Shown: positions 1,403-34,429 of the stretch, piece after piece
How positions within the stretch are numbered: position 1 is the first letter of the stretch
Layout: each line of letters opens with the position of its first letter
Origin: Desulfosudaceae bacterium
Lineage (GTDB): Bacteria > Desulfobacterota > Desulfobacteria > Desulfobacterales > Desulfosudaceae
Direction of reading: 5' to 3'
Assembly: GCA_963674745.2 (NCBI GenBank)
Contig: CAXXDV010000001.1
Coordinates: 1,280,001-1,344,000, forward strand
DNA length: 64,000 bases
Position numbers and translations under genes: made by a program
Notes under the pieces: model-generated
What the model was told of the DNA's origin: nothing
Seen by the model: the letters and a program-made list of their open reading frames with translations, nothing else
Database searches by the model: none

Positions 1403-1417
1403 TTTTTCCTCCACTAC

Positions 1418-3097: not shown

Positions 3098-3237
3098 TTT
3101 TTTTGTATCCTGACAATAACTTTTTTACAGAGGACAGCACGGTCGAACAGCTGCCAAAAACAAAACACAGGTCTTGTTCTCGGCCTGTTCAGCTTGGATG
3201 CGTATTCGGAAAAAAAGACAGACGGCTTGTCCGTGGC

Positions 3238-3796: not shown

Positions 3797-3912
3797 CAGA
3801 ACCAGCTTGTTTTGTAAAAAGTTTTCGTCTGTTTCCAATCAACCCCGTTGGGTGTTTTGGCCTGGTCATGTTTTCCGTTTGCGTCACGTCTTTCTCTCGA
3901 ACAATCAAACAA

Positions 3913-4047
3913 TTAAACAGACAGCCGTTTTCTTCCTTTTGCTCTCCTCCTTTTAATAATATTTCTACCCTGTTTTGTAGACATACGTTTTCTGAAGCCG
4001 TGTGTTCTGGCTCGTTTCACACGACTCGGCTGATATGTGCGTTTCAT
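3913..4047 (-). CDS. rpmH: 50S ribosomal protein L34 (44 aa, missed by ORF track)
   Basis: Manual translation: [44 protein letters not shown]. Confidence 0.98.
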
Positions 4048-4098
4048 GATCCTACATCCTTTTTATCGGTATTTGTTCTCAAAAAAAATAATCCACCT

Positions 4099-4127
4099 TT
4101 TATAATACCGGCAAAACCAAAAGTCAA
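4099..4127 (-). promoter_or_regulatory. Putative sigma70 promoter of the rpmH operon
   Basis: Minus strand TTGACT-17 bp-TATAAA, about 50 bp upstream of rpmH. Confidence 0.55.
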
Positions 4128-4174
4128 GATATAAAAAATTATCAATAAAATCAGATTAAACCATTAACGTCTGG

Positions 4175-5710: not shown

Positions 5711-5746
5711 ATCGAAATCCTGATTAATTAACGATAAAAAATACTA

Positions 5747-8272: not shown

Positions 8273-8480
8273 TCTCTCTCTTCTGTTGATCGAAAGACGA
8301 TACCTGTATATTTGAAAATTGGTTTTATTATCAACCGGTTTTATTGTGTCGGGCAACGCCCGGTATAAGATGATGATACGGGATTTTCAGAATCAAAATC
8401 TGGACAGGGTCTTTGTTTTTAGAATAAAGAAGGGGTCTTTTAAACTTTATCAAACAATATCAGCGCTTCTAAAATATTAT

Positions 8481-19144: not shown

Positions 19145-19204
19145 TCGGGCTTGAGTTAATAAACAAGAAAAGTCAAAAAACTCGTTTGGTTAAAGTGGTA
19201 AAAA

Positions 19205-20206
19205 TCATTTTGTTTCGGACAGAAAAAACCGTTTTACGCCTTGATCGCCGACAAGAAGGACGGTATTGTTGTCAACCGGCAAAATCGAGACAATGCTCAT
19301 CCGGTCCGACTGCTGGCGTATTTTAAACGATTTTCCACCATCCTCGCTGATGAGAAGAATACCGCCCATGCCTCCGATGACAATACGTCCGTCATCTAAA
19401 CGGGTTCCCCCGTTAAACAGGACTTTGACGGGGATATTGATTTGCTCCCAGTTCGCGCCGGCATCTTCGGATCGGTACACATGACCCTGGAGGCCGAAAA
19501 TAAGCACGGTATCACCGTCCAGTGGAAGCGTCCCGAAAAAAGAGCCGCCATAGGGTGACGGCAATGAAACCCAGGTTTGCCCCAGGTCATCCGAGCGGTA
19601 TATCGTTCCCGCCTCACCGGCAATATAAAGCTTGCCGTTATCGGACATCCGGACCTGATTTAAGTGCCAGTCATCCTCGCTGACCATTTTATCGGTCCAG
19701 TTCAGGCCACCGTCTTTTGTCGTCAGAAAATAACCGTAGGCCCCGATGGCAAAGCCTTTCTCGGGGTTCTGAAACCAGACATCCAGCAGCGGCCGCTCTT
19801 CTTCAGGGGCGGAATATACCAGGGACCAGTTTTTCCCACCATCGGTGGTTCGAAGAATTACGGCGTCGTGACCGACCGCCCAGCCCAGTTTTTTGTCATG
19901 GAAATAAACACCGGTCAGGGTGGCAAGGGTCTGGACTTTGGCCTGCGTCCACGTATTTCCCCCATCATCCGAATAAAGAATATGCCCCCTCTCTCCGACA
20001 ACGACCATCCGGTCTCCCGCAAAACAACCGGCCAGTAAAAGTGTTTTAGCGGCCAGCGGGGCGATAACGGAATATTCAGGCGGTGGTTCGGCGGCAGGCA
20101 GCGCAACGGAAAACAGGGCAGACGAAACAAAACAGACAAACAAAATCACAGCGGGGTTCTTTTTTAAAAACAGCGCTGGAAAAAAAAATTTTTTTAACCG
20201 GTTCAT
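19205..20206 (-). CDS. YCF48-like/BNR-repeat beta-propeller exported protein
   Basis: Repeated Asp-box S/T-x-D-G-G-x-T/N-W motifs (SDDGGNTW, TTDGGKNW, TKDGGLNW, SDDLGQTW, SEDAGANW); signal peptide. Confidence 0.88.
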   Translation of the reverse strand: MNRLKKFFFPALFLKKNPAVILFVCFVSSALFSVALPAAEPPPEYSVIAPLAAKTLLLAGCFAGDRMVVVGERGHILYSDDGGNTWTQAKVQTLATLTGVYFHDKKLGWAVGHDAVILRTTDGGKNWSLVYSAPEEERPLLDVWFQNPEKGFAIGAYGYFLTTKDGGLNWTDKMVSEDDWHLNQVRMSDNGKLYIAGEAGTIYRSDDLGQTWVSLPSPYGGSFFGTLPLDGDTVLIFGLQGHVYRSEDAGANWEQINIPVKVLFNGGTRLDDGRIVIGGMGGILLISEDGGKSFKIRQQSDRMSIVSILPVDNNTVLLVGDQGVKRFFLSETK

Positions 20207-20242
20207 AAAAAGTAAATCCCTGTTGCCAGATTAAAAGATAAA

Positions 20243-20268
20243 GCCGGGAGGGCGGCCACCCTCCCGGC
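20243..20268 (-). terminator. Intra-operon GC-rich hairpin after DUF1329 (partial terminator or mRNA stabiliser)
   Basis: GCCGGGAGGG-cggcca-CCCTCCCGGC followed by TTTATCTTT on the minus strand. Confidence 0.6.
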
Positions 20269-20305
20269 CAACCACATGTTTTTTTAATCGCTTTTCGAGG
20301 CGAAA

Positions 20306-21667
20306 CTACCTTCTTCCCTGGCGTCTCAACGCGGCCGGGGTAAAGTCTTCCTTGGATAATTCAATGTCAAACTCCGGCACCGAGCTTTCATTCATCAGGC
20401 CCAGGGCGAGATACCGGCCGGATTGAAGATCGCCATGCACCTCCAGGGTGGTCCACAGGTTGGGTATGCTATAATAGTTCATTGCATGGCCTTCGTCATA
20501 CCGCCAGAGCTGATCACGGTTGTCATAGATATCGGCCAAAAGAATCTGCCAGGAGTCTTCATCCACGTAAAACGTGCGGCGTTTATAAAGATGGCGGCTG
20601 CCTTCCTTTAGCGTGGCCTCTACAACCCAGACCCGGTGAAGTTCATAGCGGCAGACATCCGGATTGAGATGCAGGGGGGTCAGGATGTCTTCGTATTTCA
20701 GCTTGTCACTGTGAAGCCTGTACTCATTATAGGGCACGTAAAGTTCTTTTTTGCCCACCAGCTTCCAGTCATAGCGGTCGGTTGCGCCGGAAAACATATC
20801 AAACTGATCCGTCGTACGCACGCCGTCAGCCGCCGTTCCCGGATTATCATAAGCCACGTTGGGCGCCCTGCGGACCCGCCGCTGACCCGGGTTGTAAATC
20901 CAGGCCGAACGGGGTTCGACAACCTGGTTCATGGTTTCATGGACCAGCAGGATGCCGCCGGCCAGCCGGGCCGGCGCCACGACTTCCTGCTTAAAGTACG
21001 CCACGACATTACCCACAGTTTCCGGCGTCGCGCCTTCATGGGCGTAAAGCATGTCCCACGAATCTTCCATTTTAACCAGGGTGTAATCACCGCTTCGGGT
21101 CAATACGGCCTGGGCAATGGAGCGTGCGGCGGTTACACAGCGATAGCGCAGGATGTGGTTCCAGATGACCTCCAGACCGTTTTTGGGAATCGGGAACGGG
21201 GTACCGATAGCCGAATTTTTCACGCCGTAACCGTTTTCCACCAGCTCAGCCGTGGCGGCCGCTTTTTTGGTCGCTTCGTAAATCCGTTCCGGAAAGGCAG
21301 CGGTGCGGCGGGTCTGATATACGTTCATCTTAAAAGTGTCATATGTTTCCAGCATGGCCTTTTGGGCGGCCGACAGCTTATCGGCATACTGGTTCATATT
21401 GTCCTTGGTGATGGTAAACAGGGCTTTATCGTCGGGAAACGGGTCGATGTAATGCATGCCGGGTTGGTAACCCGCCGGCGGTGTGGTGATCCCGCCGGTC
21501 CAGGCCGGAATGGTGCCGTCGGCGTTGCCGGCCCTTTCACCACCCATGGGCGTCAGGTCCTTGTCCAGGCGGGCGATTTCCTCAGGTGACATCTTGGCGC
21601 CGGCCGATGAGGCGACAACAGCCAGCAGCATTGCAAGACTGATACATAAGAGCTTTTTTTTCAACAT
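20306..21667 (-). CDS. DUF1329 periplasmic (LolA-like) protein
   Basis: Signal peptide; LTPMGGERAGNADGTIPAWTGG, YNPGQRRVRRAP, RYELHRVWVVEATLK, KRRTFYVDEDSW. Confidence 0.92.
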   Translation of the reverse strand: MLKKKLLCISLAMLLAVVASSAGAKMSPEEIARLDKDLTPMGGERAGNADGTIPAWTGGITTPPAGYQPGMHYIDPFPDDKALFTITKDNMNQYADKLSAAQKAMLETYDTFKMNVYQTRRTAAFPERIYEATKKAAATAELVENGYGVKNSAIGTPFPIPKNGLEVIWNHILRYRCVTAARSIAQAVLTRSGDYTLVKMEDSWDMLYAHEGATPETVGNVVAYFKQEVVAPARLAGGILLVHETMNQVVEPRSAWIYNPGQRRVRRAPNVAYDNPGTAADGVRTTDQFDMFSGATDRYDWKLVGKKELYVPYNEYRLHSDKLKYEDILTPLHLNPDVCRYELHRVWVVEATLKEGSRHLYKRRTFYVDEDSWQILLADIYDNRDQLWRYDEGHAMNYYSIPNLWTTLEVHGDLQSGRYLALGLMNESSVPEFDIELSKEDFTPAALRRQGRR

Positions 21668-21684
21668 AATCAATCTCCCATTAT

Positions 21685-23598
21685 TTAGAATGAATATTTG
21701 ATGTTGGCTTGTACAAAGTCACGATCATTGATCAGGTTGTACCGGCCCGCGCCGAAGTAGTTCGTATAACTGACATCAACCGACCAGGCGCTTAAATACG
21801 TTGCTGTTACACCAAAGGTAACGGCCTTGCGGTTTTCAAGGAAATTTCCCCCCGGACCCGGAGTGTTTCCGTCTACGTCATGTTGCCAGACAAGGCGGGG
21901 TGAAAGACCGATGGCGCCGATAGCATCTTCGTATGTCAGTTTGGTCAGCAACCGGTATCCCCAGGAATTGGCGTCCGCAAAATGTCGTGAAGTTTCAGAT
22001 GCTTTTCCGGCATGGGCGCCGCCGAACGGTTTGGTCGGATCCATACCCGGCAAAACCGCCTGGGACGGGTTGCCGGTGGTATAAGAACCGGCAGACTCAA
22101 GGCGCAACTCACTTTTGCTCGGCATATCATCGACATAGGTATATCCGACTTCACAGAGCATGGTCAGGTTGTCGGCGCCGAAGGTCGGCCCGAAGACCTG
22201 GGTGGCGGTCATCGTTGCCGTCGTTACGTCTCTTTCGATATAACCGTGAATAATCTCATTGGGACCATAGGTTTCGTTAAAGTACTGGCTGACCTGGTTG
22301 TCTTTATAGGTCGGGTTGAACTCGATGGGTGACAGGTAGGCCAGGATCAATTCCACATCATCGATCTGCAGGGGAAGGTCAGGACGGTAGGCGACTTCCC
22401 CCTGGAGGGCGATGCCGGTGGCGCCCAGGGAGGTGTTGAAACTGAGGCCGTACATCTCGATATCTTCCGGATATTCGGTAAAGTAAAAACCGGTTTTGGA
22501 ATAATTGTTGACGCAAGCGCCGGCGGCTGCTGAAACGTCGCCACCCACCGCCGCAACGGTTTGCTGAAAGGCGGCTGCGGACGAACCGGCCACACCCGCT
22601 TCGGTTCCGGTCTGGGTGCTTAATATGGGCACCCGGCTGTGATAATTCATATAGTAAAAGCTGAATTCCGTATCATTCAGGGCTTCGGAAAAATAACGGA
22701 ACGCGAGACCATACTGACCGTCGTCATCAGCCTTTGCGTCCGGCCCGCGTTTAACCATCAGAAATTCCGGATCGAAACCCATTGGCCCCAGATCCGTTCC
22801 TTCGTCGGAAATCGAACCAAAAGCCAGTACCACATATTTCCCCCCTTCACCGGCCGCGTCCGAGGTGGAAAAATAGGATCCCGGGGGATCAACATCGGTA
22901 TTGTCCCAGTCATACAGGTACAACGCTTCCAGGGTTGTGCTGTCAGTAAGACCGAATGAACCGTAGACCATGCCTTCAGGAACCAGCGCTTCTTTTAATT
23001 CGGCACCGGGTACCCGGATAGCGCTGACATTTATGGGGTTGATGGTGTTGATACCGCCCTGGAAAAAAGTGCCTTCCCCCCAGCTGACGACCTGATCACC
23101 AACGCGGAGATCAATGGGCATGCCGAAAACGTCAAAAGACCCGGAAAGATAGGCGTCAAGTACTCTGGCATCGCTTCCCACCAGCTCCAGGGCGTCATCA
23201 GACAGTTCCATTTTGTCCATGTGGCGGTTTTCGACTTCAAAATCATAAAAAGCCGTGCCCCGGACAAAGGCGCCCAGATTTTTATACGTCAGAAGCAAAT
23301 CGGACGTTATTTTTGGCGCGTTTCCGACAAGGCCTTCGCCGAAGTTCAGGTTTCCATTATCGCCGTTTACAGAGAACGCGTTACCGCCGTTCATCAGGCC
23401 GATAATGTCCTGGTCCCGGTCCTGTACGCGCCATTTCAAGCCATAGGAGAGTGTCGTGTCAAAACTACCCTGGATTTCTCCCATTTCAAACATTAAAGCA
23501 TGGGCCGGTTTAACGAAACCGGGAATTAAAATTGTCGAAAATAAAAATACCCCCCCCGACAACAACCAGACAAAAAGATGTAATGGTTTGATTTTCAT
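21685..23598 (-). CDS. DUF1302 outer-membrane beta-barrel protein
   Basis: SFDTTLSYG..R, NGDNGNLNF, RVGDQVVSWGE, C-terminal DRDFVQANIKYSF. Confidence 0.92.
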   Translation of the reverse strand: MKIKPLHLFVWLLSGGVFLFSTILIPGFVKPAHALMFEMGEIQGSFDTTLSYGLKWRVQDRDQDIIGLMNGGNAFSVNGDNGNLNFGEGLVGNAPKITSDLLLTYKNLGAFVRGTAFYDFEVENRHMDKMELSDDALELVGSDARVLDAYLSGSFDVFGMPIDLRVGDQVVSWGEGTFFQGGINTINPINVSAIRVPGAELKEALVPEGMVYGSFGLTDSTTLEALYLYDWDNTDVDPPGSYFSTSDAAGEGGKYVVLAFGSISDEGTDLGPMGFDPEFLMVKRGPDAKADDDGQYGLAFRYFSEALNDTEFSFYYMNYHSRVPILSTQTGTEAGVAGSSAAAFQQTVAAVGGDVSAAAGACVNNYSKTGFYFTEYPEDIEMYGLSFNTSLGATGIALQGEVAYRPDLPLQIDDVELILAYLSPIEFNPTYKDNQVSQYFNETYGPNEIIHGYIERDVTTATMTATQVFGPTFGADNLTMLCEVGYTYVDDMPSKSELRLESAGSYTTGNPSQAVLPGMDPTKPFGGAHAGKASETSRHFADANSWGYRLLTKLTYEDAIGAIGLSPRLVWQHDVDGNTPGPGGNFLENRKAVTFGVTATYLSAWSVDVSYTNYFGAGRYNLINDRDFVQANIKYSF

Positions 23599-23758: not shown

Positions 23759-24565
23759 TTATCCGTTTCCGGACACCTGCTTTCCGGCTTCGGCCGCCGC
23801 ACCCAGGGCGCCCATCAGTTGCGGGTCAACTGAAAGGGGTTCGAGCTCCATTCGCAGCATTCGGGCCAGGTGGGTGGTCAGGCCGCGGCTCTTGGAGCAG
23901 CCGCCGGTAACCGTCACTTTCGGCTGGATGCCGACGCGTTTTAACAGCGTGAAGCTGCGTTTGGCGATGGAGGCCTGAATACCGGCGGCAATGTCGGCGG
24001 CCGGTTTTTTCTTGCTCAGCAGGCTGATAACTTCTGTTTCGGCAAATACGCTGCATTGAGACGTAATGGGAATGACCGATTTGGCCTGCATGGAGAGCTC
24101 GGAAAACTGGTCCAGATCCATTTTGAAGATGCGACTCATCATTTCCAGAAATCGTCCGGTGCCGGCCGCACACTTATCGTTCATGACAAATTCCCGAACC
24201 CGGCCCTGATCGTTCAAGGCGATGGCTTTGACGTCCTGTCCGCCGATATCGAGAACAGTGCGGACCCCCGGGTTGCAGAAATAAACACCCGAAGCGTGGC
24301 AGGTGATTTCGGAGATGTTGTCATGGGCAAAGGGCACCTCGTTTCGACCGTAGCCGGTTCCGATCAGGCGGGTAAGGCTGCTTATTCCGTTCAGCCCTTC
24401 CACCTGCCTGCCGGCCAGCGCCAGCACTTTGGTGGCGGTCTCTTCAGGATCGATTTCACTGGGGATAATGGCCGTGCCGACAATAGCGTTGTCTTTTAAA
24501 ATGACGGCTTTGCCGGTGGTGGATCCGACATCACAACCGCCGAAAAAAAGTGCTTCCGTACCCAT
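23759..24565 (-). CDS. Acyl-CoA dehydratase/reductase activase (BadF/BadG/BcrA/BcrD ASKHA ATPase, 4Fe-4S)
   Basis: GCDVGSTTGK, SEITCH, DIGGQD, MNDKCAAGTGRFLE, ITSQCSVFAE. Confidence 0.92.
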   Translation of the reverse strand: MGTEALFFGGCDVGSTTGKAVILKDNAIVGTAIIPSEIDPEETATKVLALAGRQVEGLNGISSLTRLIGTGYGRNEVPFAHDNISEITCHASGVYFCNPGVRTVLDIGGQDVKAIALNDQGRVREFVMNDKCAAGTGRFLEMMSRIFKMDLDQFSELSMQAKSVIPITSQCSVFAETEVISLLSKKKPAADIAAGIQASIAKRSFTLLKRVGIQPKVTVTGGCSKSRGLTTHLARMLRMELEPLSVDPQLMGALGAAAEAGKQVSGNG

Positions 24566-24579: not shown

Positions 24580-25983
24580 TTATACATCCAGGCGTTTCGC
24601 ATGCATGATGTTTTCCATAAAGTGATTGACCTGTTCGATAATGCCTTCCCTGGAAACGATTCTGGGGTCGCTTAAGTCATAATTGATAATCAGCATGGGC
24701 AGGTTGTGCTCCCGGCATTTTTCCCGCAATATACCGTTTAAGGCGGCGGTGTTTTTACAGCCCACATGTCCGGCCACCCAGAGCATATCAAGGTCAAACT
24801 GTTTGATCATGTTAAAAATATCGTCCAGATAGTTTTCCGCCGGTCCCCGGGTGTGGCGGGCCATGGGGCCTTCCATGATGTTCAGGCCCAGGCCGTACAA
24901 CAGGGATTCCTCGGTTGAAGTGTCAATAAAAGGCTCCCGGCGGTTATAGGACATGCTGTCGATAATCAGCGAAACACCGTAAGCGGATTCCGCCCAATTA
25001 AAAAGGTCAATGGCGTGCAGCAGTGGCGGGTTCCACAGCAGGGCCCGGTATTTTTCATTGGTCACGGCACCGGTCCCGGTCCGCAGGTTTTTTTCGGCCA
25101 GGTCCCGGAGGCGCTTGAACAACAAGGTCGTTTCCGGTTCACCAGGGGAAACGTTGGCGCCCCAGAGGTGACTCAAATAAACCGGTTCCGCGGCCAGAGG
25201 TGCCGGTCGGGTCTTGAGCATATCCCACAGCTCCAGTTCATATTCAACCATGCGGTTGCGTTCTTCGCAGATCCGCGCCAGTTTGTCCCAGTCCATTTTT
25301 CCCGGCGTGTTGTCTTCAAGCCACTTGATCAGGCGCCGGAGTTCTCCCACGAAAAAAGCGCGCGTCCGGTCATTATAAAAATGGTGCGGAATGTCCAGTC
25401 GGAAAGTCGGCAGTTTTAACGTTCTTTCGATCAACGTGTAGGAGGACATACCACCGTCACAAGGCAGGTTTGAAGAAATCAGGGCCAGGGCCGGCGGTAT
25501 TTCTCCGGCCAGAAAAAATCCCATGGTGCTTTTGGGCAGGCTGCAGACGTCCGGGGGTATACCGTAATTTTCCGCTTGATCAATATACTGTTCCACGGCA
25601 TGCGGATCGATCATGGGCAGAGCAATGCCCAGTAGTTCAGCCATGAATGGTGTAAGGCCCATGGCCCTGAAAAGTTCAGGCGGGACCATGTCTTCGTGGA
25701 CAATCAGCCGGTCGCCGCGCAGAAACATGTCATCCAGAACCCGGACAAAACCGTTGATAACAAATGAAATAACCACCAGCGTGGCTTCATAATAAGCGTC
25801 GTTACGGTTTTGACCAAATTTTTGGTTGAGCAGGTTGGCACGTAACAGCACTTTCATCCAGGGGTACCGCTTAAGATCACGCAGTGTTTTGAGGGGGCCG
25901 TTGCGCAGGGCCATACCAGCAATGGCCGACAGGTTGGCGGCGACGTGTTTGGTATATAACGCCCGGCGGGTGATTTGATTCAT
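24580..25983 (-). CDS. 2-hydroxyacyl-CoA dehydratase / benzoyl-CoA reductase family subunit (alpha, HgdA/BcrB-like)
   Basis: Cys ligands DVCSLPKS, LPCDGG, HVGCKN; LEDNTPGKMDWDKL. Confidence 0.88.
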   Translation of the reverse strand: MNQITRRALYTKHVAANLSAIAGMALRNGPLKTLRDLKRYPWMKVLLRANLLNQKFGQNRNDAYYEATLVVISFVINGFVRVLDDMFLRGDRLIVHEDMVPPELFRAMGLTPFMAELLGIALPMIDPHAVEQYIDQAENYGIPPDVCSLPKSTMGFFLAGEIPPALALISSNLPCDGGMSSYTLIERTLKLPTFRLDIPHHFYNDRTRAFFVGELRRLIKWLEDNTPGKMDWDKLARICEERNRMVEYELELWDMLKTRPAPLAAEPVYLSHLWGANVSPGEPETTLLFKRLRDLAEKNLRTGTGAVTNEKYRALLWNPPLLHAIDLFNWAESAYGVSLIIDSMSYNRREPFIDTSTEESLLYGLGLNIMEGPMARHTRGPAENYLDDIFNMIKQFDLDMLWVAGHVGCKNTAALNGILREKCREHNLPMLIINYDLSDPRIVSREGIIEQVNHFMENIMHAKRLDV

Positions 25984-25986: not shown

Positions 25987-27105
25987 TTATTTTCCCATGC
26001 TTTCAAGAAAAGCCTGCACCCGGGTCTGAAGTTGCCCCAGGCCGGTGCCGCTGTATTCCCGTTCCAGGACGAGTACCCGGAAGCCGGCCTTTCGCAAGGC
26101 TTCTATCAGAGAAGCCGATTCCACGCCCCAGGTGTCGCAGAATTTGATAAATTCGATGATAATGCCGTCCACCCGGAAGTCTTCGGCCGCGGCGACGATC
26201 TGTTTCAGTCGCTTGTCAAAATCTTCCATCATGCGCGGGCAGGACGGCACCGACAGGGTGTGTTCGGCGATTGCCGTCAGCGGGTCGCCTTCCAGCCGGA
26301 TTTGGTCCAGTCCGGGAATGGAGCCGGTGCAGATACGGTCCGCGACCACCAGGGCGCCGGTGGATTCGATGGCTTCAATATACCGGGGATCATCCAGCTG
26401 TCCGCCGACGATCATCAGCCGGGCGCGATGGTTTCCGGTTTCCCTGCCTTCTTTTAGCTGGTCGCGAAAGTCTTCAATAGGCTTGCGGATCAAATGACGG
26501 GGCGTTGTAAAAGCGGCCATCAACAACCGATGAAAGTCGGTTCCTGATAACGGCGGGCGTTCTTTTTTTCTTTGTTCCGATATGGATTGCAACAGGGCCA
26601 GAAAATGGTTTTCTTCTTTTACAGCGTTTATCAAGGCCTCATCCGTAACGGAAATCTGAAAATGGGACGCCAGGTGCGCTATCAGTTCTTTCAACTCGTC
26701 AACGTACCAGGCCAGCCCCTCTTTTCCGGTCCGGTGGGGCACATCAAGAATATGGGAAAAATCCAGAGGCATGAGGTGGCTGATGTTGTCATGCAGGCGT
26801 CGCAGGTGATCGCAACTGGCTGTGTGTACCCATCCGCCCAGAAAGTCATAACGGGAATCCATGGCAAACTCAAGCAGGCTGCGGGTGTAGGAACAGGTCA
26901 GCTTGGAAAGATAAATATCGGCCAGTTCTGTATCCCCCACGCCCGGTGCCCGCATTCGTAAGGGAAACAGAGGGGGGATTGAAAGCAGTACCCGTGGCAC
27001 ATAGCTGCAGGTGTAACCAATAGGAATACCGCCCTGGTCGATGGCGTTTTGCACCAGCAGGTTGACAGGGTCTTCCAGGTATTGATCGAACAGGCTTGTC
27101 TTCAT
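25987..27105 (-). CDS. 2-hydroxyacyl-CoA dehydratase / benzoyl-CoA reductase family subunit (beta, HgdB/BcrC-like)
   Basis: GYTCSYVP, TCSYTRS, SCDHLRR, SCPRM, KFCDTWG, GQLQTRVQAFLE. Confidence 0.9.
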   Translation of the reverse strand: MKTSLFDQYLEDPVNLLVQNAIDQGGIPIGYTCSYVPRVLLSIPPLFPLRMRAPGVGDTELADIYLSKLTCSYTRSLLEFAMDSRYDFLGGWVHTASCDHLRRLHDNISHLMPLDFSHILDVPHRTGKEGLAWYVDELKELIAHLASHFQISVTDEALINAVKEENHFLALLQSISEQRKKERPPLSGTDFHRLLMAAFTTPRHLIRKPIEDFRDQLKEGRETGNHRARLMIVGGQLDDPRYIEAIESTGALVVADRICTGSIPGLDQIRLEGDPLTAIAEHTLSVPSCPRMMEDFDKRLKQIVAAAEDFRVDGIIIEFIKFCDTWGVESASLIEALRKAGFRVLVLEREYSGTGLGQLQTRVQAFLESMGK

Positions 27106-27115: not shown

Positions 27116-27856
27116 TCATTCTTTTGTTTTTGATTTTTCTTTCATGGCCTGGCGCATGTTACGCAGTTCGGACACCTCGTCGCAGACCGGGCTGTACTCG
27201 CAGGAATCACAATCAAAGTCCATTTCTTCAACCATTTTGTTCATGGCCCCGATAATCTCTCCCACATCGTCACCGATGGTTTTTAAGGCCAGAACATCCT
27301 CAACTGTCGATGTGACAAAAACGATTTCAACCCCATGAATATATGGTTTTTCTATTAATTCAACCATCAGGGCGCTTCCCAGCAGGGACAGGGAAAAACC
27401 GTCGGCGACCGCGGTTTTGCTGATTCTGCTCCATTCCCGCTGGTACTGTGAAACCGCCCGCATCATGTAACCGGCCAGGCTGATGTCGTATTTGGCCAGT
27501 TCCATTTCCCGGTAACGGTCATAACTGTTCTCTTCGTCAAAACCGCAGACTTCCACCATGACGACTTTGCCGAAAGGCACCAGCGGGCGGGTTTCCCGGT
27601 GAATATCCGGGCCGATCAGAGAGATGCGGCCGTGATGAACGGCGTTGGGGCGATCGGTCCAGAACAGAAACGACGTGGCCGCAGTTTTGGGGCTGCCCAA
27701 CTCTACGGCGGTGTCCGTTGACAGAACCAGGTTGCTGTTTCCCCCGGACGGCCAGCCTGGATCGGTTGCGGCAGTGAACGTTGAAAAGTCGTTTTTTCCG
27801 GTTCTGTCGGCCAGAAAATGTCTGATGCGTTCGAGGTGTGTGTCAAACAGAGCCAT
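27116..27856 (-). CDS. Stand-alone protein resembling the middle domain of acetyl-CoA synthase beta subunit (AcsB/CdhC), with C-terminal CxxCx5C
   Basis: GRISLIGPDI...PFGKVV and WSRISKTAVADGF resemble the ACS segments GK(I/V)EVIGPDI...PLGI and WLRISK.A..KGF as I recall them; tail DCDSCEYSPVCDEV. Confidence 0.72.
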   Translation of the reverse strand: MALFDTHLERIRHFLADRTGKNDFSTFTAATDPGWPSGGNSNLVLSTDTAVELGSPKTAATSFLFWTDRPNAVHHGRISLIGPDIHRETRPLVPFGKVVMVEVCGFDEENSYDRYREMELAKYDISLAGYMMRAVSQYQREWSRISKTAVADGFSLSLLGSALMVELIEKPYIHGVEIVFVTSTVEDVLALKTIGDDVGEIIGAMNKMVEEMDFDCDSCEYSPVCDEVSELRNMRQAMKEKSKTKE

Positions 27857-27865: not shown

Positions 27866-28648
27866 TTATTTTTGGTCGAGCATTTCCGCAGCGAACAGGG
27901 CCGCACCCAGGGCGCCATTGATCTGCGGATCAACGGGCAGTGTTTTGACCGGGACGCCCAGCCCGTCGGAAAGGGCATTGAACATGCCGCTGTTTTTGGC
28001 CACCCCGCCGGTCATGACCACATCCTCATGAACCTCGATGCTCTTGGCCAGGGAGGCGACCCGGTTGGCCATGGCATGATGCAGGCCGCAGATAATGCTA
28101 CGCACATCGCGGCCCTCGTTGATCAGCGATACAACTTCGGTTTCGGCAAAAATGACGCACTGGTTGGATATTCTGATTTTTTCATTTGCTTGAGCTGAAA
28201 GTTCACCCATGTCGGCCAGATCGACTTCCAGGGCTTTGGCCATGACTTCGAGAAAGCGGCCGGTGCCGGCCGCACATTTGTCATTGTATATATAACGGGC
28301 CACGTTGCCTTTATCATCAATTCTTATGGCTTTGGCGTCCTGACCGCCGATATCGACAATGGTGCGTACCGAGGGCAAATTCCACCAGGCGCCTTTGGCA
28401 TGACAGGAAATTTCTGATTGCGTGGCGTCGGCAAAGGAAACCGCGTCTTTGCCATATCCCGTTCCGACAGTGATTTTTATATCAGAGAGGGAAATATCCG
28501 CGTTTTCCGCCGCCAGACGGATAACCGCATTGGCGGAATCTTCAGGCCTGGTCTTTACCCGGATTACTTCCTGACCGATTATTTTGTCGTCGTTCATGAT
28601 GACGGCCTTGGCAGTCAGCGAACCGATGTCACACCCTGCAGTAATCAT
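27866..28648 (-). CDS. Acyl-CoA dehydratase/reductase activase
   Basis: MITAGCDIGSLTAK, SEISCH, DIGGQD, NDKCAAGTGRFLE, ISNQCVIFAE; AAGGTG RBS before ATG 28648. Confidence 0.92.
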   Translation of the reverse strand: MITAGCDIGSLTAKAVIMNDDKIIGQEVIRVKTRPEDSANAVIRLAAENADISLSDIKITVGTGYGKDAVSFADATQSEISCHAKGAWWNLPSVRTIVDIGGQDAKAIRIDDKGNVARYIYNDKCAAGTGRFLEVMAKALEVDLADMGELSAQANEKIRISNQCVIFAETEVVSLINEGRDVRSIICGLHHAMANRVASLAKSIEVHEDVVMTGGVAKNSGMFNALSDGLGVPVKTLPVDPQINGALGAALFAAEMLDQK

Positions 28649-28659
28649 ATTTTCACCTT

Positions 28660-28826
28660 TATGGCGTCGTAAAAAGCCCAATTGCCGCGGGGCGGCCGGC
28701 TGCGTTGCGCTTCGTCTCTCGGAAGTTCACGTACTAATTTGTACGCTGCATTCCTCGAGATTCGCGACGCCTTGATCTTGAACTTTTTATTTTGCCATCC
28801 AAATTAAAACTGTTTTATGATTCCAT
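28660..28826. mobile_element. MITE-like intergenic repeat, copy 1
   Basis: ATGGCGTCGTAAAAAGCCCAATTGCCGC..GCTGCGTTGCGC..GTAC..GTACGCTGCATTCCTC..CTTGAACTTTTTATTTTGCCATCC is colinear with the copy at 42774-42950. Confidence 0.75.
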
Positions 28827-29606
28827 GTTTACGTTTTCGTTTGCGAATATGGCCGCCCCGATGGCACCGGCCAGCTGAGGATCGGCCCGCCGTATTTTCC
28901 GGATGCGGTACCCGAGAATTTTTTCCAGGGTGCTGACCACGCCGCTGTTTTTGGCCACGCCGCCGGTCATGCAGATTTCCTTTTCCACTTTGACGGTATT
29001 GGCCAGAATGGCCACCCGTTTGGCCATGGCGCTGTTGATGCCGGCGCCGATATCCTCAATCAAGTATCCGGAGTTCAAGTACTTGATGACGTCGGCCTGG
29101 GCCCAGACCGTACAGGTTGAGGCCAGCATGATCGGTGAGCGGGCCCGGGCGGACAGGTCGCCCAGTTCATCAATGCCGATATTTAGAACGTCGGCCATGA
29201 CTTCCAGAAAGCGGCCGGTGCCGGAGGCGCATTTGTCGTTGGTGATAAAGTTTTCAACAGCGCCGGCGTCATTCAGCTTGATGGCCTTGCAGTCCTGCCC
29301 GCCGATATCGATAACGGTTTTGACCGTCGGCACCATCCAGTGCGCGCCTTTCCCGTGGCAGGCGATTTCCGACCTGGCTTCACTGAGAAACGGGATCTTG
29401 TCCCGGCCGTAACCGGTTCCCACGACATACCCGATTCCGGACATGTCCACCCCGGCGTTTGCCAGGGCCTGGTCCATTGCTGCCTGGGCCGATTCCCCGG
29501 GTCTGGCCTTGGAACGGATAATGCTGGAGCCGACAATTTTTTTGCCTTTCATGATAACGGCTTTGGATGTCAGCGATCCGACATCGCAACCGGCGACAAG
29601 TTTCAT
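28815..29606 (-). CDS. Acyl-CoA dehydratase/reductase activase
   Basis: GCDVGSLTSK, SEIACH, DIGGQDCK, TNDKCASGTGRFLE, STCTVWAQ. Confidence 0.92.
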   Translation of the reverse strand: MKLVAGCDVGSLTSKAVIMKGKKIVGSSIIRSKARPGESAQAAMDQALANAGVDMSGIGYVVGTGYGRDKIPFLSEARSEIACHGKGAHWMVPTVKTVIDIGGQDCKAIKLNDAGAVENFITNDKCASGTGRFLEVMADVLNIGIDELGDLSARARSPIMLASTCTVWAQADVIKYLNSGYLIEDIGAGINSAMAKRVAILANTVKVEKEICMTGGVAKNSGVVSTLEKILGYRIRKIRRADPQLAGAIGAAIFANENVNMES

Positions 29607-31003
29607 AACAACCCCCTTACACTGAAGAATTCTTCCAGGCGCTCTTTGGTGTTTTCCCAGGATTCCACCCGGTCGTCAAAAGCGTCGTCGTAAAGAATAT
29701 GGGTGGGATAACCCAGTTTTTCCAAGTCTCTGGCAAAAGGCTTGACCATGCCCCAGGTGTTGCGGCAGCCCGGGGTGCCGTTGTAGATAATGCAGTCGGC
29801 CTTGAAGGCCCGGGCAATGGCAAGGGTTTCGTCCAGCCACATGTTGGGCTGGTCATAGGGGCCGCGAATGGAACGGACCATGGGCAAACGGGCGTTTAAC
29901 TGGGCAATGCTGTTCAGCATGGCCGCTTCCGATCCCGTGTTTATTTTATAAGCCGACCCGGGAAGGTCCTTTGTGTAAGACGTTCCTTCCATAAAGGTTT
30001 TGGAAAGAATGCTGCCCAGATGGGAAATACCGTTGTCGTCCAGCCATTTCCAGAAGGTCATGTCCACCGTGTAATGATCGATATAACACAGGTAAAGTCG
30101 CCTTTTTTCAACCTTGGACTTTAAACCTGAAACCCCATTTTCAACGTTCTGCCGGACGACCTTCCGCATTTCTTCAAGGGCACGGGTGTATTCCGGTAAT
30201 CCGGCGCATATAAAACGGCCGGCATAGATAAACATGTTGTAGATGGGCGGCACCGGACAGGGTACGACCATCTGCATGTCCTCCATGTCTGAAATGATGG
30301 TGTCCTGCTTTTCCACTTCCAGAAGAACGTCTTTCAGCCGGTCATAATCCATTTTATTACCGGTCTGCTCTTCCAGAAACCGGATCATTTCCCGGTAGTC
30401 CTCGAGCTGGTACTGGCTGGTGCGGTCGTCGTTGATCTTCTGGGGATAGTTGAGCTGGTAGCAGGGTTTTTCCAGATAGCTGGACGCAAAGGCGAAGGCA
30501 TTGGCGTTGGTGTCGCAGACACCGGGCGTGTCACAGACCAGAAAGTCGATTTCTTCGGCCAGACCCGCGAAATAGGCGCCCAAAGAGCCCCTCTGAGAAG
30601 AGCAGGATGTCTCGGTCAGGCCGACCTCGCAGCCGAAATCCAGATAATCAAATGCTCCCCGGCGCCAGACCATACTGGCCAAGGCGGACAGGATTTCAAA
30701 TGTTACGGGCACGGCGTCCACGGCATAGAGGATGGCCGGGGAAAAACAGAAGGTCGTGGCCGCAATTTTTTTTCCTTTGGCATGAGCCGTCAGAATATTA
30801 TCGAAGAACCGGGCCATCATCTTCAGAAAAACCGCTCCCGGTTCGCCCTCGTCCAGAATGGCGCCCAAAGGCTTGTTGAAATAGGGGACATACCGCATCA
30901 AAATGTCTTTTTCCTTGGGCGTGCCGTCCGATGCCTTGGACGCGGCACTGATGATGCGGTCCAACATCCAGTCAAAATGATATTCTTTTATTTCCGCCCG
31001 CAT
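29603..31003 (-). CDS. 2-hydroxyacyl-CoA dehydratase / benzoyl-CoA reductase family subunit (alpha-like)
   Basis: TSCSSQRG, GVCDTN, PGCRNTWG; FLEEQTGNKMDYDRLK. Confidence 0.88.
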   Translation of the reverse strand: MRAEIKEYHFDWMLDRIISAASKASDGTPKEKDILMRYVPYFNKPLGAILDEGEPGAVFLKMMARFFDNILTAHAKGKKIAATTFCFSPAILYAVDAVPVTFEILSALASMVWRRGAFDYLDFGCEVGLTETSCSSQRGSLGAYFAGLAEEIDFLVCDTPGVCDTNANAFAFASSYLEKPCYQLNYPQKINDDRTSQYQLEDYREMIRFLEEQTGNKMDYDRLKDVLLEVEKQDTIISDMEDMQMVVPCPVPPIYNMFIYAGRFICAGLPEYTRALEEMRKVVRQNVENGVSGLKSKVEKRRLYLCYIDHYTVDMTFWKWLDDNGISHLGSILSKTFMEGTSYTKDLPGSAYKINTGSEAAMLNSIAQLNARLPMVRSIRGPYDQPNMWLDETLAIARAFKADCIIYNGTPGCRNTWGMVKPFARDLEKLGYPTHILYDDAFDDRVESWENTKERLEEFFSVRGLL

Positions 31004-31040: not shown

Positions 31041-32180
31041 TTAGCCTGTAAGCCGTTCCAAAAAGGCCTGAATTCTCATTTGCAGACGGCCGGTTTCCGT
31101 CAGCGGGCCATACTCTCTTTCAATTTTCAGACAGGGCACCCCCGCTTTTTCCAGGTCCCGTTCCAGCAGGCCATGTTCCGAGCCGTGCAGGTCACAAAAG
31201 CGGATGTTCTGCATGATAACACCGTCAATGGCGGCCGCGTCGATTTTTTTCTTTAAAATATCCAGGCGTTCTTTGTATTTACCGAACATTCTCGGGCAGG
31301 TGCATTCACCCAGATATCCTTCGGCCATGGCTTCAAGAGGATCACCGGCTTCCGCCACCAGGTTGCCTTCATAGCGCACGCCAAAGCAGAGGTTTTCGGC
31401 CACCACCAGGGCGGTTTCATTCTTTTCAATCAATTCAATCAGCTCTATGTCGTCACTGATGCTGCCGATAACCAAGAGGCGTTTTTTTCCGGTGGAAACC
31501 GGGCGGCTGCTTTTCAGGTCCGCCAGGAGTTGTTCCAGCTTTTCCGTATATGTTTCCCTCGGCATGACCGTGCCGGCCACGGCCACGGCAAAGGCCTGGG
31601 AACCGGTTATGGGCACTTCCGGCCGGGCCCGGATCTCCTCCAGCTCCTTGAGCAGCAAACGGCCCCGGTTGTAAATCGCGATGGATTGCCGCAAGGCCTC
31701 ATCGTTTACGGTGACGTTGAAATGTTTCTGCACAGCATCGATAAGCATTTGAATTTCATCTTTAAACCATTTCATGCCATGGGGCAGTGTTTTGTGGGGC
31801 ACGTCAAAATAATAAAAGAAGGGCGGTACGATGCCTTCATAATCTTCTCCGGCTTTTCGCCAGCATTCGTCCAGACGGCGCATGGCGTCACAACCGGGTG
31901 TAATAATAGTGCCGTCCAGAAAGTGATACTTGCCCTTGCCGGCCAGTTGCAGAATGCATTTGGGAAAAGAACAGATAAAGGGCCCGAAAAAGGCGTCGCC
32001 GATGTCCGTGCCTTCGGTTTCAATGCCGCGGATACGGACCGGCAGAATGTCGACCGAATGAAAAATTTCAGCCGGCACGTAAGAGCAGGTATAGCCGACG
32101 GTTTTTTTTCCGGACGCCCGCCAGTCCTGAATGGTCCGGTTATAAAGAGTGGTTGTGGCCTCGTAAAAAAGATCAGTCAT
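31041..32180 (-). CDS. 2-hydroxyacyl-CoA dehydratase / benzoyl-CoA reductase family subunit (beta-like)
   Basis: GYTCSYVP, FICSFPK, GCDAMRR, TCPRM, RFCDLHG, GRLQMRIQAFLE. Confidence 0.9.
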   Translation of the reverse strand: MTDLFYEATTTLYNRTIQDWRASGKKTVGYTCSYVPAEIFHSVDILPVRIRGIETEGTDIGDAFFGPFICSFPKCILQLAGKGKYHFLDGTIITPGCDAMRRLDECWRKAGEDYEGIVPPFFYYFDVPHKTLPHGMKWFKDEIQMLIDAVQKHFNVTVNDEALRQSIAIYNRGRLLLKELEEIRARPEVPITGSQAFAVAVAGTVMPRETYTEKLEQLLADLKSSRPVSTGKKRLLVIGSISDDIELIELIEKNETALVVAENLCFGVRYEGNLVAEAGDPLEAMAEGYLGECTCPRMFGKYKERLDILKKKIDAAAIDGVIMQNIRFCDLHGSEHGLLERDLEKAGVPCLKIEREYGPLTETGRLQMRIQAFLERLTG

Positions 32181-33675
32181 GTTGCTCAGCCTCCCCGTTT
32201 TTTAATAATAAAGCAGCCAGCATGTGCCGCGCGCTTTCCGCTGCATCTTCAAACTCGTCATCATCGACCGCCAGGGCCTTGATGAACCCTTTTGTCAGTG
32301 GTGGAACCATGGCCCGGGCCAGGGGACGCAAGGCCTCACCGACGATTTCGCCCGCATTTTCCAGGAAAGCGGAAACTTCATATGTGTCCAGGGCGTCCAT
32401 CAGGGACGTGATTTTATCCCGGAGCACTTCCGGCCGGTCTTCGAACATCCGGTTGGCCAGCAGGACGGTGGCGTTGATGATGTTGGCCCCTTCCTGAAGG
32501 TCCAGACCGGCCAGCGACTGGGCCAGGGCCTCATTGATTTTTTCGGTATCCAGCGACTCCAGCGTTTCCAGCCGGTGGCCGAGGGTCCGAAAACGGGCAT
32601 TATGGACGGCGCTTTTTGTGGACAGGCTGCCGGCCAGCAGTTCCGGATGGTCGGCCAGAACATTCGTCAGGGCCCGGCCGGCTTGTTCTTTTATTTCTGC
32701 GACGGCGGTTCGGGATTTCCAGAACACCTCACCGTTGATTGTGCTGAAAACGGATTCAAGCAGGACCGACACATCGTTGGGCAACTGCGGGGCGCCCGGT
32801 TCGCCAATCAGTGCGCTGCCGACATGAAACCGGCGGACCATTTCGGCCAGTTCGTTGACCAGGCGGCCGACCGTGTCCGCGTCGGTTTCCCTTAACACCG
32901 AGAGAATAACGTCGGCCACCAGATCCGGTGATCCTTTTTCGTTAAACATACCGACAGCTTGAGCCAATGCGTCAACGGCGATGTTGCCAAGAGACGGTAC
33001 CAGCGCCAGAAAGGAAATCACCTTGCCGGGATAATGCCACATGGTCGTGTTGATCATGTGAACCACAGCGGAGATCGAGGGTATTCCTGTCTCCAGAGCT
33101 TCTTTTACTTCACCGAAGTCCAGGCTGGTGATCCACTTTTCGAAGGCCGGCGCCAGGGCCCTGGACAGAAAATCGGGCTCGTTTTTATGAACATCATTGA
33201 TGGTTCGACAGAAGACGGTTAAAAGTTCAGCGCTTTTTCCGGTTGAAAGATCCCGGACGATGGTTTCAACCAGCCTTTTTTTGGCCGCCACATCCAATTT
33301 CCGGATTTCTTCGGCGCCATTGACCAAAAGGGACAGAAGACCGTTCAGCAGCAGGCCGGTATGGGCGGAAGCCCGGCTGGTGAACGCCTCGTCTGATGCC
33401 AGGGAATGCAGGGCCGGTGCTTCGTCCAGCCCTTTTTCGTCCAGCATGGCGTTTTTTATGCTGTTGCCGGCTGCACTGGCAACGCCTTTGCGGAACACGC
33501 TTCGGGCCGGACCCGCCCCGGTGCCGCTGACCGCCCACAGGCGGATCAGTTCGGGAAGGAGGTTTCCGGCCAACTGGCGCATTTCTTTTGTGTTGCTGAT
33601 CTGTTCCAGGACTTCCCGGAAGGCCGGTGCATCCGACAAGATCTCCTTCGAGCCGATATGGTGTTGTTTCGACAT
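32173..33675 (-). CDS. Hypothetical all-alpha helical-repeat protein (about 500 aa)
   Basis: Long ORF coupled to neighbours on both sides; Leu/Ala/Glu-rich with recurring xxLDxxxhxxhh motif; no recognised family. Confidence 0.8.
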   Translation of the reverse strand: MSKQHHIGSKEILSDAPAFREVLEQISNTKEMRQLAGNLLPELIRLWAVSGTGAGPARSVFRKGVASAAGNSIKNAMLDEKGLDEAPALHSLASDEAFTSRASAHTGLLLNGLLSLLVNGAEEIRKLDVAAKKRLVETIVRDLSTGKSAELLTVFCRTINDVHKNEPDFLSRALAPAFEKWITSLDFGEVKEALETGIPSISAVVHMINTTMWHYPGKVISFLALVPSLGNIAVDALAQAVGMFNEKGSPDLVADVILSVLRETDADTVGRLVNELAEMVRRFHVGSALIGEPGAPQLPNDVSVLLESVFSTINGEVFWKSRTAVAEIKEQAGRALTNVLADHPELLAGSLSTKSAVHNARFRTLGHRLETLESLDTEKINEALAQSLAGLDLQEGANIINATVLLANRMFEDRPEVLRDKITSLMDALDTYEVSAFLENAGEIVGEALRPLARAMVPPLTKGFIKALAVDDDEFEDAAESARHMLAALLLKNGEAEQHD

Positions 33676-33676
33676 G

Positions 33677-34429
33677 TTATAATGACTCCCGGTTTTCAAG
33701 TGGGTTGACGATGGATTTTTTTTCTTTGCCGGCGGTAATCGAGGGGTCTTTCATACGCTGGTTGATCAGATCTCGACCGGCATCCAGCGTTTTTAAGGCC
33801 ACTTCTTTTTCCTTGGTTAGGTATTCGTTCACCGTTTCAACCGCCATTTCCCGGTTACCCTGCTGTAGATAAGCGTTTCCCCGTTCCACGATTTGCAGGT
33901 TTTCATAAAGACTCTCGCTGCGCAGGGTAAAGGTCAGATATTGCATGCGGCGGACACTCGGCAACAGATCTAAAATCATTTCTTCCAGCAGCGGATTTCT
34001 GGCCGCCTTTAAGCAATTCAGGCTGAAATCAAAAAAGGAGGTGTAGTAGGCATGAATATCTTTGCGACGAACGGCATCGGCCGCATTGAGCACGGTCTGG
34101 TTTATTTTTTTTAAATCTTCGGGGGTGCTCTTTTCGGTGCATTCCTTTGCCGCCAGCATGATCAGGGCGCAGGTAATGTTATATAGAGAACTGATATACG
34201 CTTTGGAAAGGCCGGTGACCTTGCTTCCTTTTCGCGGCGTCTGCTCTACCAGACGTTGCTTTTCCAACATCTTCAGCGCTTCGCGAACCGGACTTCGGCT
34301 GACCTGAAGCTCGGCAGCCAGTTGGGCCTCGCGGATGCTTTCACCCGGCTTCAGCTCAAAGCGGATGATTTTTTCCCGAATATGCTCGGCAATCTGTTCC
34401 GGCAAACTTTGTGCGGCGATGAATGTCAC
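33677..34429 (-). CDS. GntR-family (FCD) transcriptional regulator
   Basis: IREKIIRFELKPGESIREAQLAAELQVSRSPVREAL wHTH; FCD-like A.RNPLL; GTG start. Confidence 0.92.
   Translation of the reverse strand: MTFIAAQSLPEQIAEHIREKIIRFELKPGESIREAQLAAELQVSRSPVREALKMLEKQRLVEQTPRKGSKVTGLSKAYISSLYNITCALIMLAAKECTEKSTPEDLKKINQTVLNAADAVRRKDIHAYYTSFFDFSLNCLKAARNPLLEEMILDLLPSVRRMQYLTFTLRSESLYENLQIVERGNAYLQQGNREMAVETVNEYLTKEKEVALKTLDAGRDLINQRMKDPSITAGKEKKSIVNPLENRESL

Follow-up and report, generated by a model that had tools for sequence, protein, structure and literature searches.

A stand-alone acetyl-CoA synthase middle domain encoded in the operon of a predicted benzoyl-CoA reductase-like enzyme

Acetyl-CoA synthase (ACS) is seen as an ancient enzyme, specialised for a single pathway. 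The locus described here raises the question of what a piece of that enzyme, encoded on its own, is doing in an operon of a different kind. The window considered, i.e., a stretch of 64,000 nucleotides from the genome of a Desulfosudaceae bacterium, contains on its minus strand a gene whose product, hereafter the ACS fragment, corresponds to the middle domain of ACS, and which is surrounded by genes encoding BcrAD/HgdC-type ATPases and HGD-D-family subunits. Such proteins are those of benzoyl-CoA reductase (BCR), 2-hydroxyacyl-CoA dehydratase (HAD) and double-cubane cluster protein (DCCP). The answer proposed, for and against which the chances seem to us about equal, is that this stand-alone derivative of ACS is a metallo-accessory, matured by a CooC-type ATPase and able to bind CoA, that serves an undescribed ATP-dependent iron-sulfur radical enzyme resembling BCR, HAD and DCCP.

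An ACS middle domain standing alone

Positions 27116-27856 of the minus strand comprise an open reading frame (ORF) of 246 codons running from ATG to TGA, with an AGG 6-8 nucleotides 5' of the start codon. As the start lies 9 nucleotides past the stop of the preceding ATPase gene and the downstream gene begins 10 nucleotides past the stop of the ORF, the gene belongs to a tightly packed operon. A chance ORF or a wrong strand was ruled out, the plus-strand frame of the same positions being full of stops. In an earlier reading of the letters alone (the sequence-only reading), a 246-residue ORF had been noted and strings had been quoted from its product. All of these strings are present, although the strand had gone unstated, and the protein does not end at the quoted ...SELR, since 14 residues follow (NMRQAMKEKSKTKE). 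The features of the gene needed below are:

27116-27856, minus strand: ACS-fragment protein ('CdhC-like'), 246 residues
27230-27769, minus strand: predicted A2 (middle) domain of ACS plus linker helix, residues 30-209
27431-27433, minus strand: Trp142 codon, putatively equivalent to the ACS Trp on which the acetyl-CoA adenine is stacked
27182-27211, minus strand: Cys216-x2-Cys219-x5-Cys225 triad, probable vestige of the cubane-binding motif of the A-cluster

That the protein is a stand-alone ACS middle domain, as the sequence-only reading had it, is agreed upon by Pfam, Foldseek and VIA-align. The ACS fragment scored 43.9 bits (cut-off 24; E 3e-11) with Pfam CdhC (PF03598), in its current form a 155-position model of the ACS middle domain, residues 45-183 corresponding to profile positions 15-151. 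In a phmmer search of the PDB, the 14 best distinct sequences were all ACS (E 1.9e-5 to 6.3e-5) and the matches covered residues 335-465 of Moorella ACS. When a profile of 30 relatives served as query, 15 of 15 matches were ACS (E 2.7e-10 to 2.9e-9). Full-length ACS models of NCBIfam matched the middle-domain stretch only, with 42.1 bits for NF040764 (cut-off 800), 38 for NF007078 (cut-off 809) and 32.6 for TIGR00316 (cut-off 355.95). The AlphaFold2 model of the ACS fragment (mean predicted local distance difference test score (pLDDT) 87.7; predicted template modelling score 0.84) returned in Foldseek only ACS among all listed rows with E at or below 1.7e-5, the next row being at E 0.45. A structural match to ACS domain 2 had been set as a test beforehand; VIA-align superimposed residues 30-209 of the model on residues 317-495 of Moorella ACS (1oao_D/1mjg_M) with Z 19.6/19.5 and a root-mean-square deviation (rmsd) of 2.1-2.2 Å (172 residues aligned; 2.1 Å at Z 19.6), the best non-ACS chain reaching Z 3.8. 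Because the structural match spans this stretch, the core of the modelled protein is predicted to be the complete A2 domain together with the helix that leads into the C-terminal A3 domain in ACS.

As in ACS (AcsB/CdhC), the motifs ELG, GPD and W-x-R-x-x-K, the adenine-stacking Trp and the A2 fold are present. Unlike ACS, the ACS fragment is without domain A1 and nearly all of A3, has N-terminal ~30 residues of its own with a conserved Trp35, and is encoded away from genes for carbon monoxide dehydrogenase (CODH) and the corrinoid iron-sulfur protein (CoFeSP). CdhC was the sole family matched, with no match to HGD-D or BcrAD models. The ACS fragment is an extra component, i.e., none of the canonical BCR/HAD subunits (BcrA-D, BzdN-Q, HgdA-C, HadB/C/I).

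The stand-alone form is not confined to this genome. A word-indexed search returned 327 relatives of 135-431 residues, the best 120 of which, as listed, are of 239-308 residues. An exhaustive profile search of 1.84 billion representatives (50% identity clusters) returned 733 at E <= 0.001, 531 at <= 1e-10 and 238 at <= 1e-30, nearly all of 230-260 residues. One relative, P0083, is a natural fusion in which a C-terminal 2x[4Fe-4S] ferredoxin domain follows straight after the cysteine tail. This is the only fusion seen; none was found among proteins of 432-2000 residues, in a search that is itself weak evidence. In an even sample of the phylum, 33 of 401 genomes hold the stand-alone form (E <= 1e-20, frames under 400 residues), some with up to four copies, and the other matches in that sample, with frames of about 410-810 residues, are authentic ACS. 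Carriers of the superfamily include sulfate reducers, syntrophs, spirochaetes and gut bacteria.

The cysteine tail and the CoA face

The CxxCx5C tail had been taken in the sequence-only reading for something new, added to the domain. When the family profile was aligned by hhalign with the genome's own ACS (probability 94.9%, E 4.7e-8, 181 columns), Cys216, Cys219 and Cys225 instead fell, column for column, on the first three cysteines of the A-cluster motif, with a spacer 3 residues shorter (5 residues in the ACS fragment, 8 in ACS). Read through a frameshift, the genome's own ACS presents CX2CX8CX9C and, later, CGC. The Moorella ACS equivalents are Cys506, Cys509, Cys518 and Cys528, holding the cubane, and Cys595-Gly-Cys597, the CGC, with Cys509, Cys595 and Cys597 holding nickel. 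The triad, to judge from the alignment, is inherited from the ACS cubane motif rather than new. The A-cluster domain at the C-terminus had likewise been described as absent. This stands for the fourth cubane cysteine and the CGC nickel site, of which the ACS fragment, ending 21 residues past the third cysteine, holds no counterpart, but not for the first ~25 residues of that domain, which are kept. Since the three cysteines are in register with the A-cluster motif, it is the start of the supposedly absent domain that is retained.

The genome's own ACS lies about 1.08 Mb from the window on the same contig (contig 1, about 2.389 Mb). It was observed to be split over two frames (contig 1, about 2,388,262-2,390,473; L088, 478-2689), one ending soon after ...SPERTGL and the continuation, CGAYNW..., with the fourth cubane cysteine and the CGC, lying in an overlapping other frame. 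Either the gene is a pseudogene broken by a frameshift, or the assembly is in error here. It is followed by a CoFeSP-like gene.

Conservation of the three cysteines in homologues was another test set beforehand. The triad, the hallmark of the family, was found in 30 of 30 close relatives and in 127 of 130 distant ones, the latter being the full-length sequences (at least 220 residues) among the best 150 of the profile matches, aligned with MAFFT. Of the three exceptions, one is apparently frameshifted and two are truly without the tail. The best-conserved positions among the 130 are E52 (127), L53 (126), G54 (128), G82 (129), G129 (127), R144 (126) and each cysteine (127), and most of the highly conserved positions are common to ACS. 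Trp142 is invariant in the 30 close relatives and is present in 102 of the 130 distant ones.

The last of these residues bears on CoA. Trp142, Arg144 and Lys147 align with Trp405, Arg407 and Lys410 of the Clostridium autoethanogenum ACS (6ytt_A). In the preprint describing that ACS with acetyl-CoA bound (bioRxiv 10.1101/2024.08.05.606187), acetyl-CoA contacts mainly A2 residues, its adenine stacking on Trp405 and its diphosphate facing a Lys/Arg-rich patch, and Arg383 and His386 are placed at the acetyl group. Given that the first three residues align while Met118 and Ala121 replace Arg383 and His386, the CoA-anchoring part of the ACS site is kept in the subfamily of the window, and the residues for acetyl transfer are not.

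In public sources, relatives are called 'CO dehydrogenase/acetyl-CoA synthase beta subunit' or 'CO-methylating acetyl-CoA synthase', a mislabelling that the sequence-only reading had anticipated. That automatic annotation is right and that a real minimal ACS or CO-metabolising protein is encoded is scarcely credible. The Pfam CdhC score above cut-off and the names given to relatives speak for it. Against it stand the missing fourth cysteine and CGC, the full-length scores far under their cut-offs and the changed residues at the acetyl site; with the rest of the A-cluster lost, the ACS fragment cannot be an ACS, and a minimal ACS was rejected. Moreover, the claim that no CODH or corrinoid gene lies nearby held in Pfam scans of 51 of the 53 window ORFs (non-overlapping, at least 110 residues; the two left out are edge ORFs). 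Homologues of the CoFeSP-like and methyltransferase-like neighbours of the genome's own ACS were found in none of the 80 related loci described below, where CODH itself was not properly queried, its expected place beside the genome's own ACS having offered no query but a long and doubtful minus-strand ORF. The sequence-only reading, in which the protein was neither CODH nor ACS and the ACS domain had been put to other use, agrees with these findings. The roles suggested there, binding of CoA esters or an Fe-S relay, may apply, both being compatible with what was observed.

The same residues allow for a protein with no redox function. The triad, perhaps with Asp215, would then bind a structural zinc or other single metal, and the protein would act as a CoA-ester adaptor that hands over substrate or regulates. 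In keeping with this, there are just three cysteines, Asp215 is found in 100 of the 130 relatives (Glu in 13, Asn in 9), the best-conserved part consists of residues common to the CoA face of ACS A2 (E52-L53-G54, G82, W142 and R144), and the conserved operon core includes no gene for a CoA ligase or CoA transferase. Yet the three cysteines are homologous to ACS cubane ligands, a ferredoxin fusion exists in P0083, and a CooC-type partner with a CXC motif, described below, suggests delivery of a catalytic or redox metal over plain zinc. Such an adaptor is considered distinctly unlikely.

The operon, related loci and the CooC-like partner

In the window, the ACS fragment had been described as embedded among activases, and three BcrAD_BadFG genes are indeed found around it, with HGD-D genes on either side. 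In order of transcription, the operon comprises the following genes, with the ACS fragment between ATPase b and the second BzdN-like subunit:

33677-34429, minus strand: GntR/FCD regulator, first gene of the cluster (Pfam GntR and FCD; a GntR homologue occurs in many related loci)
32173-33699, minus strand: 508-residue all-helical protein of no known family
31041-32180, minus strand: HGD-D subunit, 379 residues, BzdN/HadC-like (Pfam HGD-D, E 1.6e-88)
29603-31003, minus strand: divergent HGD-D subunit, 466 residues, in the BzdO/HadB position (Pfam HGD-D, E 2e-48)
28815-29606, minus strand: BcrAD/HgdC-type ATPase a (Pfam BcrAD_BadFG, E 7.6e-59)
27866-28681, minus strand: BcrAD/HgdC-type ATPase b, immediately preceding the ACS fragment (Pfam BcrAD_BadFG, E 1e-60)
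25987-27105, minus strand: second BzdN-like HGD-D subunit, 372 residues (Pfam HGD-D, E 1.1e-80)
24580-25983, minus strand: second large HGD-D subunit, 467 residues (Pfam HGD-D, E 2.7e-58)
23759-24565, minus strand: third BcrAD/HgdC-type ATPase (Pfam BcrAD_BadFG, E 5.8e-54)

Two HGD-D and two BcrAD genes, followed by two HGD-D genes and one ATPase gene, recall class I BCR (BzdNOPQ/BcrABCD), HadBC with HadI, and DCCP with DCCP-R. In the PDB, the 379-residue subunit is about equally near to BzdN (8s02_B, E 1.3e-38), HadC (3o3m_B, E 1.1e-36), MbdN (1e-32) and DCCP (3.4e-24). It likely carries a double-cubane cluster, and scored 170 bits with the NCBIfam double_cubane model, below the cut-off of 350. 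The very divergent 466-residue subunit matched only DCCP (E 3e-6). All NCBIfam equivalog models were far under their cut-offs for the HGD-D/ATPase enzyme of the operon, which is, as judged by such comparisons, a putative undescribed member of the BCR/HAD/DCCP superfamily. The 508-residue protein, whose AlphaFold2 model is all-alpha (pLDDT 74.7), had no match in Pfam or NCBIfam and none in a Foldseek search of the PDB at E <= 0.001. Its best Foldseek rows (E 0.51) are BAR-domain proteins with rmsd above 25 Å and no fold was assigned; a paralogue is found at about 817.8-819.1 kb of contig 3. As a side observation, the TTG called mechanically as the start of ATPase b probably lies too far upstream; an ATG 12 codons further on (MITAGCDIGS...) better suits the N-terminus of the family.

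Of the described BCR/HAD/DCCP systems other than BzdNO, none is known to have an ACS-derived subunit, a CooC-type ATPase or a 508-residue helical protein. BzdNO, in those parts of its description drawn on here, holds an [8Fe-9S] double cubane in the small subunit and an aqua-[4Fe-4S] cluster on three cysteines in the large one, and differs from the present operon in lacking all three of these proteins (PMC11971306). The literature covered, from which subscription-only papers fall outside, held no description of a stand-alone ACS middle-domain protein or of a CooC gene in BCR/HAD operons. Two candidate descriptions were rejected: a paper on isoprene reductase (PMC10134865), in the part seen, is unrelated, and 'CdhC-like' as used in the part seen of PMC13370988 means a full ACS without the prismane domain.

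To place the operon among its relatives, one genome per species was scanned, and the 80 best of the 140 loci found were retained. Mechanically called ORFs were compared by phmmer with the window proteins, and the denominators that follow include only loci with enough flank. The 80 loci come from Desulfobacterales, Desulfosudaceae, Smithella, Syntrophaceae and Spirochaetota/Leptospirales metagenome-assembled genomes. Upstream of the ACS fragment, HGD-D genes were found in 54 of 55 loci, an ATPase gene in 67 of 71 and a gene for the 508-residue helical protein in 46 of 50, while a second HGD-D pair lay downstream in 27 of 54. Co-occurrence of homologues with HgdAB-family genes had also been set as a test beforehand, and an HGD-D or ATPase gene was present somewhere in 76 of the 80 loci. 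Of the other four, L026, L031 and L071 each have at most 156 nucleotides of upstream flank, the fourth being L043.

Directly downstream of the ACS fragment, a gene encoding a 256-residue CooC/AcsF-type ATPase was found in 63 of 74 loci, the two frames overlapping in 56 of 66 pairs (first-start ORF calls), and the ACS fragment appears usually to be translationally coupled to this ATPase. The CooC-like protein finds its best PDB match in CooC1 (3kje, E 2e-17), an ATPase that inserts nickel, and the CXC metal motifs of the two align. All 27 copies that were aligned (27 of 27) have both the deviant Walker A and the CXC. This partner had escaped the sequence-only reading, which as a whole held up with respect to the ACS domain, its context and the conservation of the cysteines, and failed with respect to the new tail.

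CooC and AcsF are metal-insertion factors, CooC1 being a maturation factor; for AcsF, this role was reportedly described by Gregg et al. in 2016. A CooC-type ATPase with deviant Walker A and CXC that follows the ACS fragment in most genomes mirrors the pairing of ACS with AcsF, but here the putative client is without the di-nickel site that AcsF fills. Likewise unlike AcsF/CooC pairs, the ATPase gene of this genome is not adjacent, lying about 0.8 Mb into another contig, where a 55%-identical CooC-like orthologue was found at 814372-815106 of contig 3, unlinked to the window. The surrounding region (contig 3, 810,000-820,000; L089) holds paralogues of the 508-residue protein and of the HGD-D pair, then the CooC-like ATPase, with no BcrAD ATPase and no ACS fragment, and so looks complementary to the cluster in the window, with its ATPases and ACS fragment and no CooC-like gene. 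Elsewhere on contig 3 (672,000-687,000; L090), two BcrAD ATPases, a 256-residue paralogue of the ACS fragment, which has 24% identity to it and shares its CxxCx5C, and a CooC-like ATPase of its own are encoded on one strand. Divergently transcribed there are an HGD-D gene, a gene for a GMC-like flavoprotein and another HGD-D gene, and an EFR1-type flavodoxin-ferredoxin gene and two enoyl-CoA hydratase-like genes lie near. In all, HGD-D was matched 19 times in this genome, which makes about nine pairs, and BcrAD 15 times.

A further 80 loci represent a deeply diverged subfamily that comes mostly from gut metagenomes. Of these, 28 have at least 5 kb of upstream and 1 kb of downstream flank, 52 having too little. 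In 12 of the 28, genes for the CooC-like ATPase, two HGD-D subunits, one ATPase and the ACS fragment occur together, and in two (L100, L112) only the CooC-like gene accompanies the ACS fragment, coming after it. Among the clusters as a whole, some have EFR1-type flavodoxin-ferredoxin genes in or near them. As a separate observation, some related clusters have added genes (L010, 15263-17254 and 8712-9896; L025, 15070-16380 and 18845-20161) encoding a tungsten-type aldehyde:ferredoxin oxidoreductase and Cys-rich proteins of 390-440 residues with a 2x[4Fe-4S] domain, none of which is in the window.

Orphan copies also exist, and linkage to HGD-D, ATPase or CooC genes is therefore not obligatory. 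The ACS fragment could on these grounds be a small redox or CoA-responsive protein of general use rather than one dedicated to the enzyme encoded next to it, the linkage being due to shared regulation only. L043, where the gene stands before recC/recB, L117, where it lies between a TPM-domain gene and a PucR regulator, and the 14 of 28 gut loci without partner genes in their flanks all fit such a protein. However, 76 of the 80 loci of the window's subfamily hold HGD-D or ATPase genes, the operon layout recurs in two distant subfamilies and with the 24%-identical paralogue of this genome, and the 14 orphans of the gut subfamily all repeat a single locus type almost identically. We regard a general role as improbable.

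Possible roles and wider surroundings

In the role proposed at the outset, the metal content, CoA binding, physical partners and direction of electron flow of the ACS fragment would be as follows. The triad would hold a site-differentiated iron-sulfur centre, possibly nickel-bearing. The CooC/AcsF-type ATPase would load this centre, in parallel to AcsF with ACS and, in this genome, in trans from 814 kb of contig 3. The A2 face would bind CoA or an acyl-CoA substrate next to the centre. Finally, the ACS fragment would work with the two-ATPase module encoded just upstream, either passing low-potential electrons to that module or presenting or sensing the CoA thioester. A role in electron transfer is hinted at by the ferredoxin fusion in P0083 and by the EFR1-type genes near clusters. 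In this respect, dedicated BCR ferredoxins, namely Thauera Fdx and Azoarcus BzdM, offer a comparison. Like these, the ACS fragment is small, bears cysteines and is encoded in a reductase operon beside ATPase genes, and its relative P0083 includes a 2x[4Fe-4S] ferredoxin domain. It differs from them in its unrelated fold, in having only three cysteines, in its CoA-binding-type domain and in having a CooC-type ATPase of its own.

Several observations weigh against the proposed role. Those BCR, HAD and DCCP enzymes that have been characterised do without a subunit of this kind, and BzdNO, as told in the part of the source used, was made with its clusters in Escherichia coli (PMC11971306). The pLDDT across the cysteine tail is just 52-71, three cysteines are one fewer than in a normal cubane site, the positions of Arg383 and His386 are occupied by other residues, as noted, and Trp142 is replaced in 28 of the 130 relatives (by Gln, Asn, Cys, His or Tyr in 24 and by others in four). 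As to gene context, the CooC-like gene is not adjacent in the window nor in L001, L003, L004 and L005 (in L003 it comes about 7 kb further on), only three of the about nine HGD-D pairs of this genome have an ACS-fragment or CooC-like gene linked to them, half of the well-flanked gut loci show no partner, albeit as copies of one locus type, and L043 is a true orphan with 10 kb of flank on either side.

Alternatively, the ACS fragment could be an assembly factor only. Together with the CooC-type ATPase, it would form a maturation machine, itself a scaffold or docking adaptor and no part of the working enzyme, that builds or loads a special cluster (for instance a double cubane or a nickel-containing site) in the HGD-D subunits. 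The tightest and commonest adjacency is that with the CooC-like gene (63/74, with frames overlapping in 56/66), CooC and AcsF insert metals, and the two genes occur alone in L100 and L112. In this genome, moreover, the CooC-like gene follows a paralogous HGD-D pair without ATPases or ACS fragment, such that both factors may serve HGD-D proteins in trans. On the other hand, it would be strange for a scaffold to be a CoA-binding-type domain in which an adenine-stacking Trp is conserved, related enzymes build their clusters without such factors (PMC11971306), and it is the order of ATPase and ACS fragment that is kept in two deeply diverged subfamilies, whereas the CooC-like gene moves. A purely assembly-related function is judged unlikely, though credible.

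The proposed metallo-accessory could be taken further. A nickel-iron-sulfur site beside a bound CoA thioester in a BCR-like radical enzyme might carry out ACS-style organometallic or metal-thiolate acyl-CoA chemistry outside the Wood-Ljungdahl pathway, coupled to ATP-driven injection of low-potential electrons. The thioester would, for example, be formed, cleaved or decarbonylated. In the absence of a fourth cubane ligand, one iron would be open, or nickel or the CoA sulfur could take up a bridging position. This extension is a long shot.

Enzymes of the BCR/2-hydroxyacyl-CoA dehydratase type catalyse reactions among the most reducing in biology. New here are the stand-alone form and the partners, both without precedent, of a domain that is itself known: a piece of ACS is reused with its CoA-binding domain and three of the cluster cysteines, accompanied in most genomes by a CooC/AcsF-type helper. 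Its role, once known, would reveal a new route of cofactor loading or a new feed of electrons or substrate to BCR/HAD-type enzymes, and would help in finding the substrate of a widespread anaerobic operon. It would also correct a systematic mis-annotation that inflates predictions of Wood-Ljungdahl capacity in metagenomes.

Directly after the operon (16793-23598, minus strand), genes for DUF1302, DUF1329, a BNR/Ycf48-like protein and an MMPL/RND transporter were observed, with a second MMPL protein that has a sterol-sensing-domain match at 14260-16692. This set may point to the handling of a hydrophobic compound and so hint at the substrate of the operon. A third BCR/HAD-type set, without ACS fragment or CooC-like gene, lies at 55309-60868 (minus strand) and comprises genes for a GMC-type flavoprotein, HGD-D subunits of 493 and 335 residues and two BcrAD ATPases. 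The 335-residue HGD-D gene seems broken, the last ~80 profile positions matching a separate 97-residue frame at 56934-57179. Finally, given that jag, yidC, rnpA, gyrB and dnaN, together with an RNase E/G gene and a radical SAM/DUF2344 gene, occupy positions 560-12046 at the start of the window, the operon lies close to the origin region of the chromosome.

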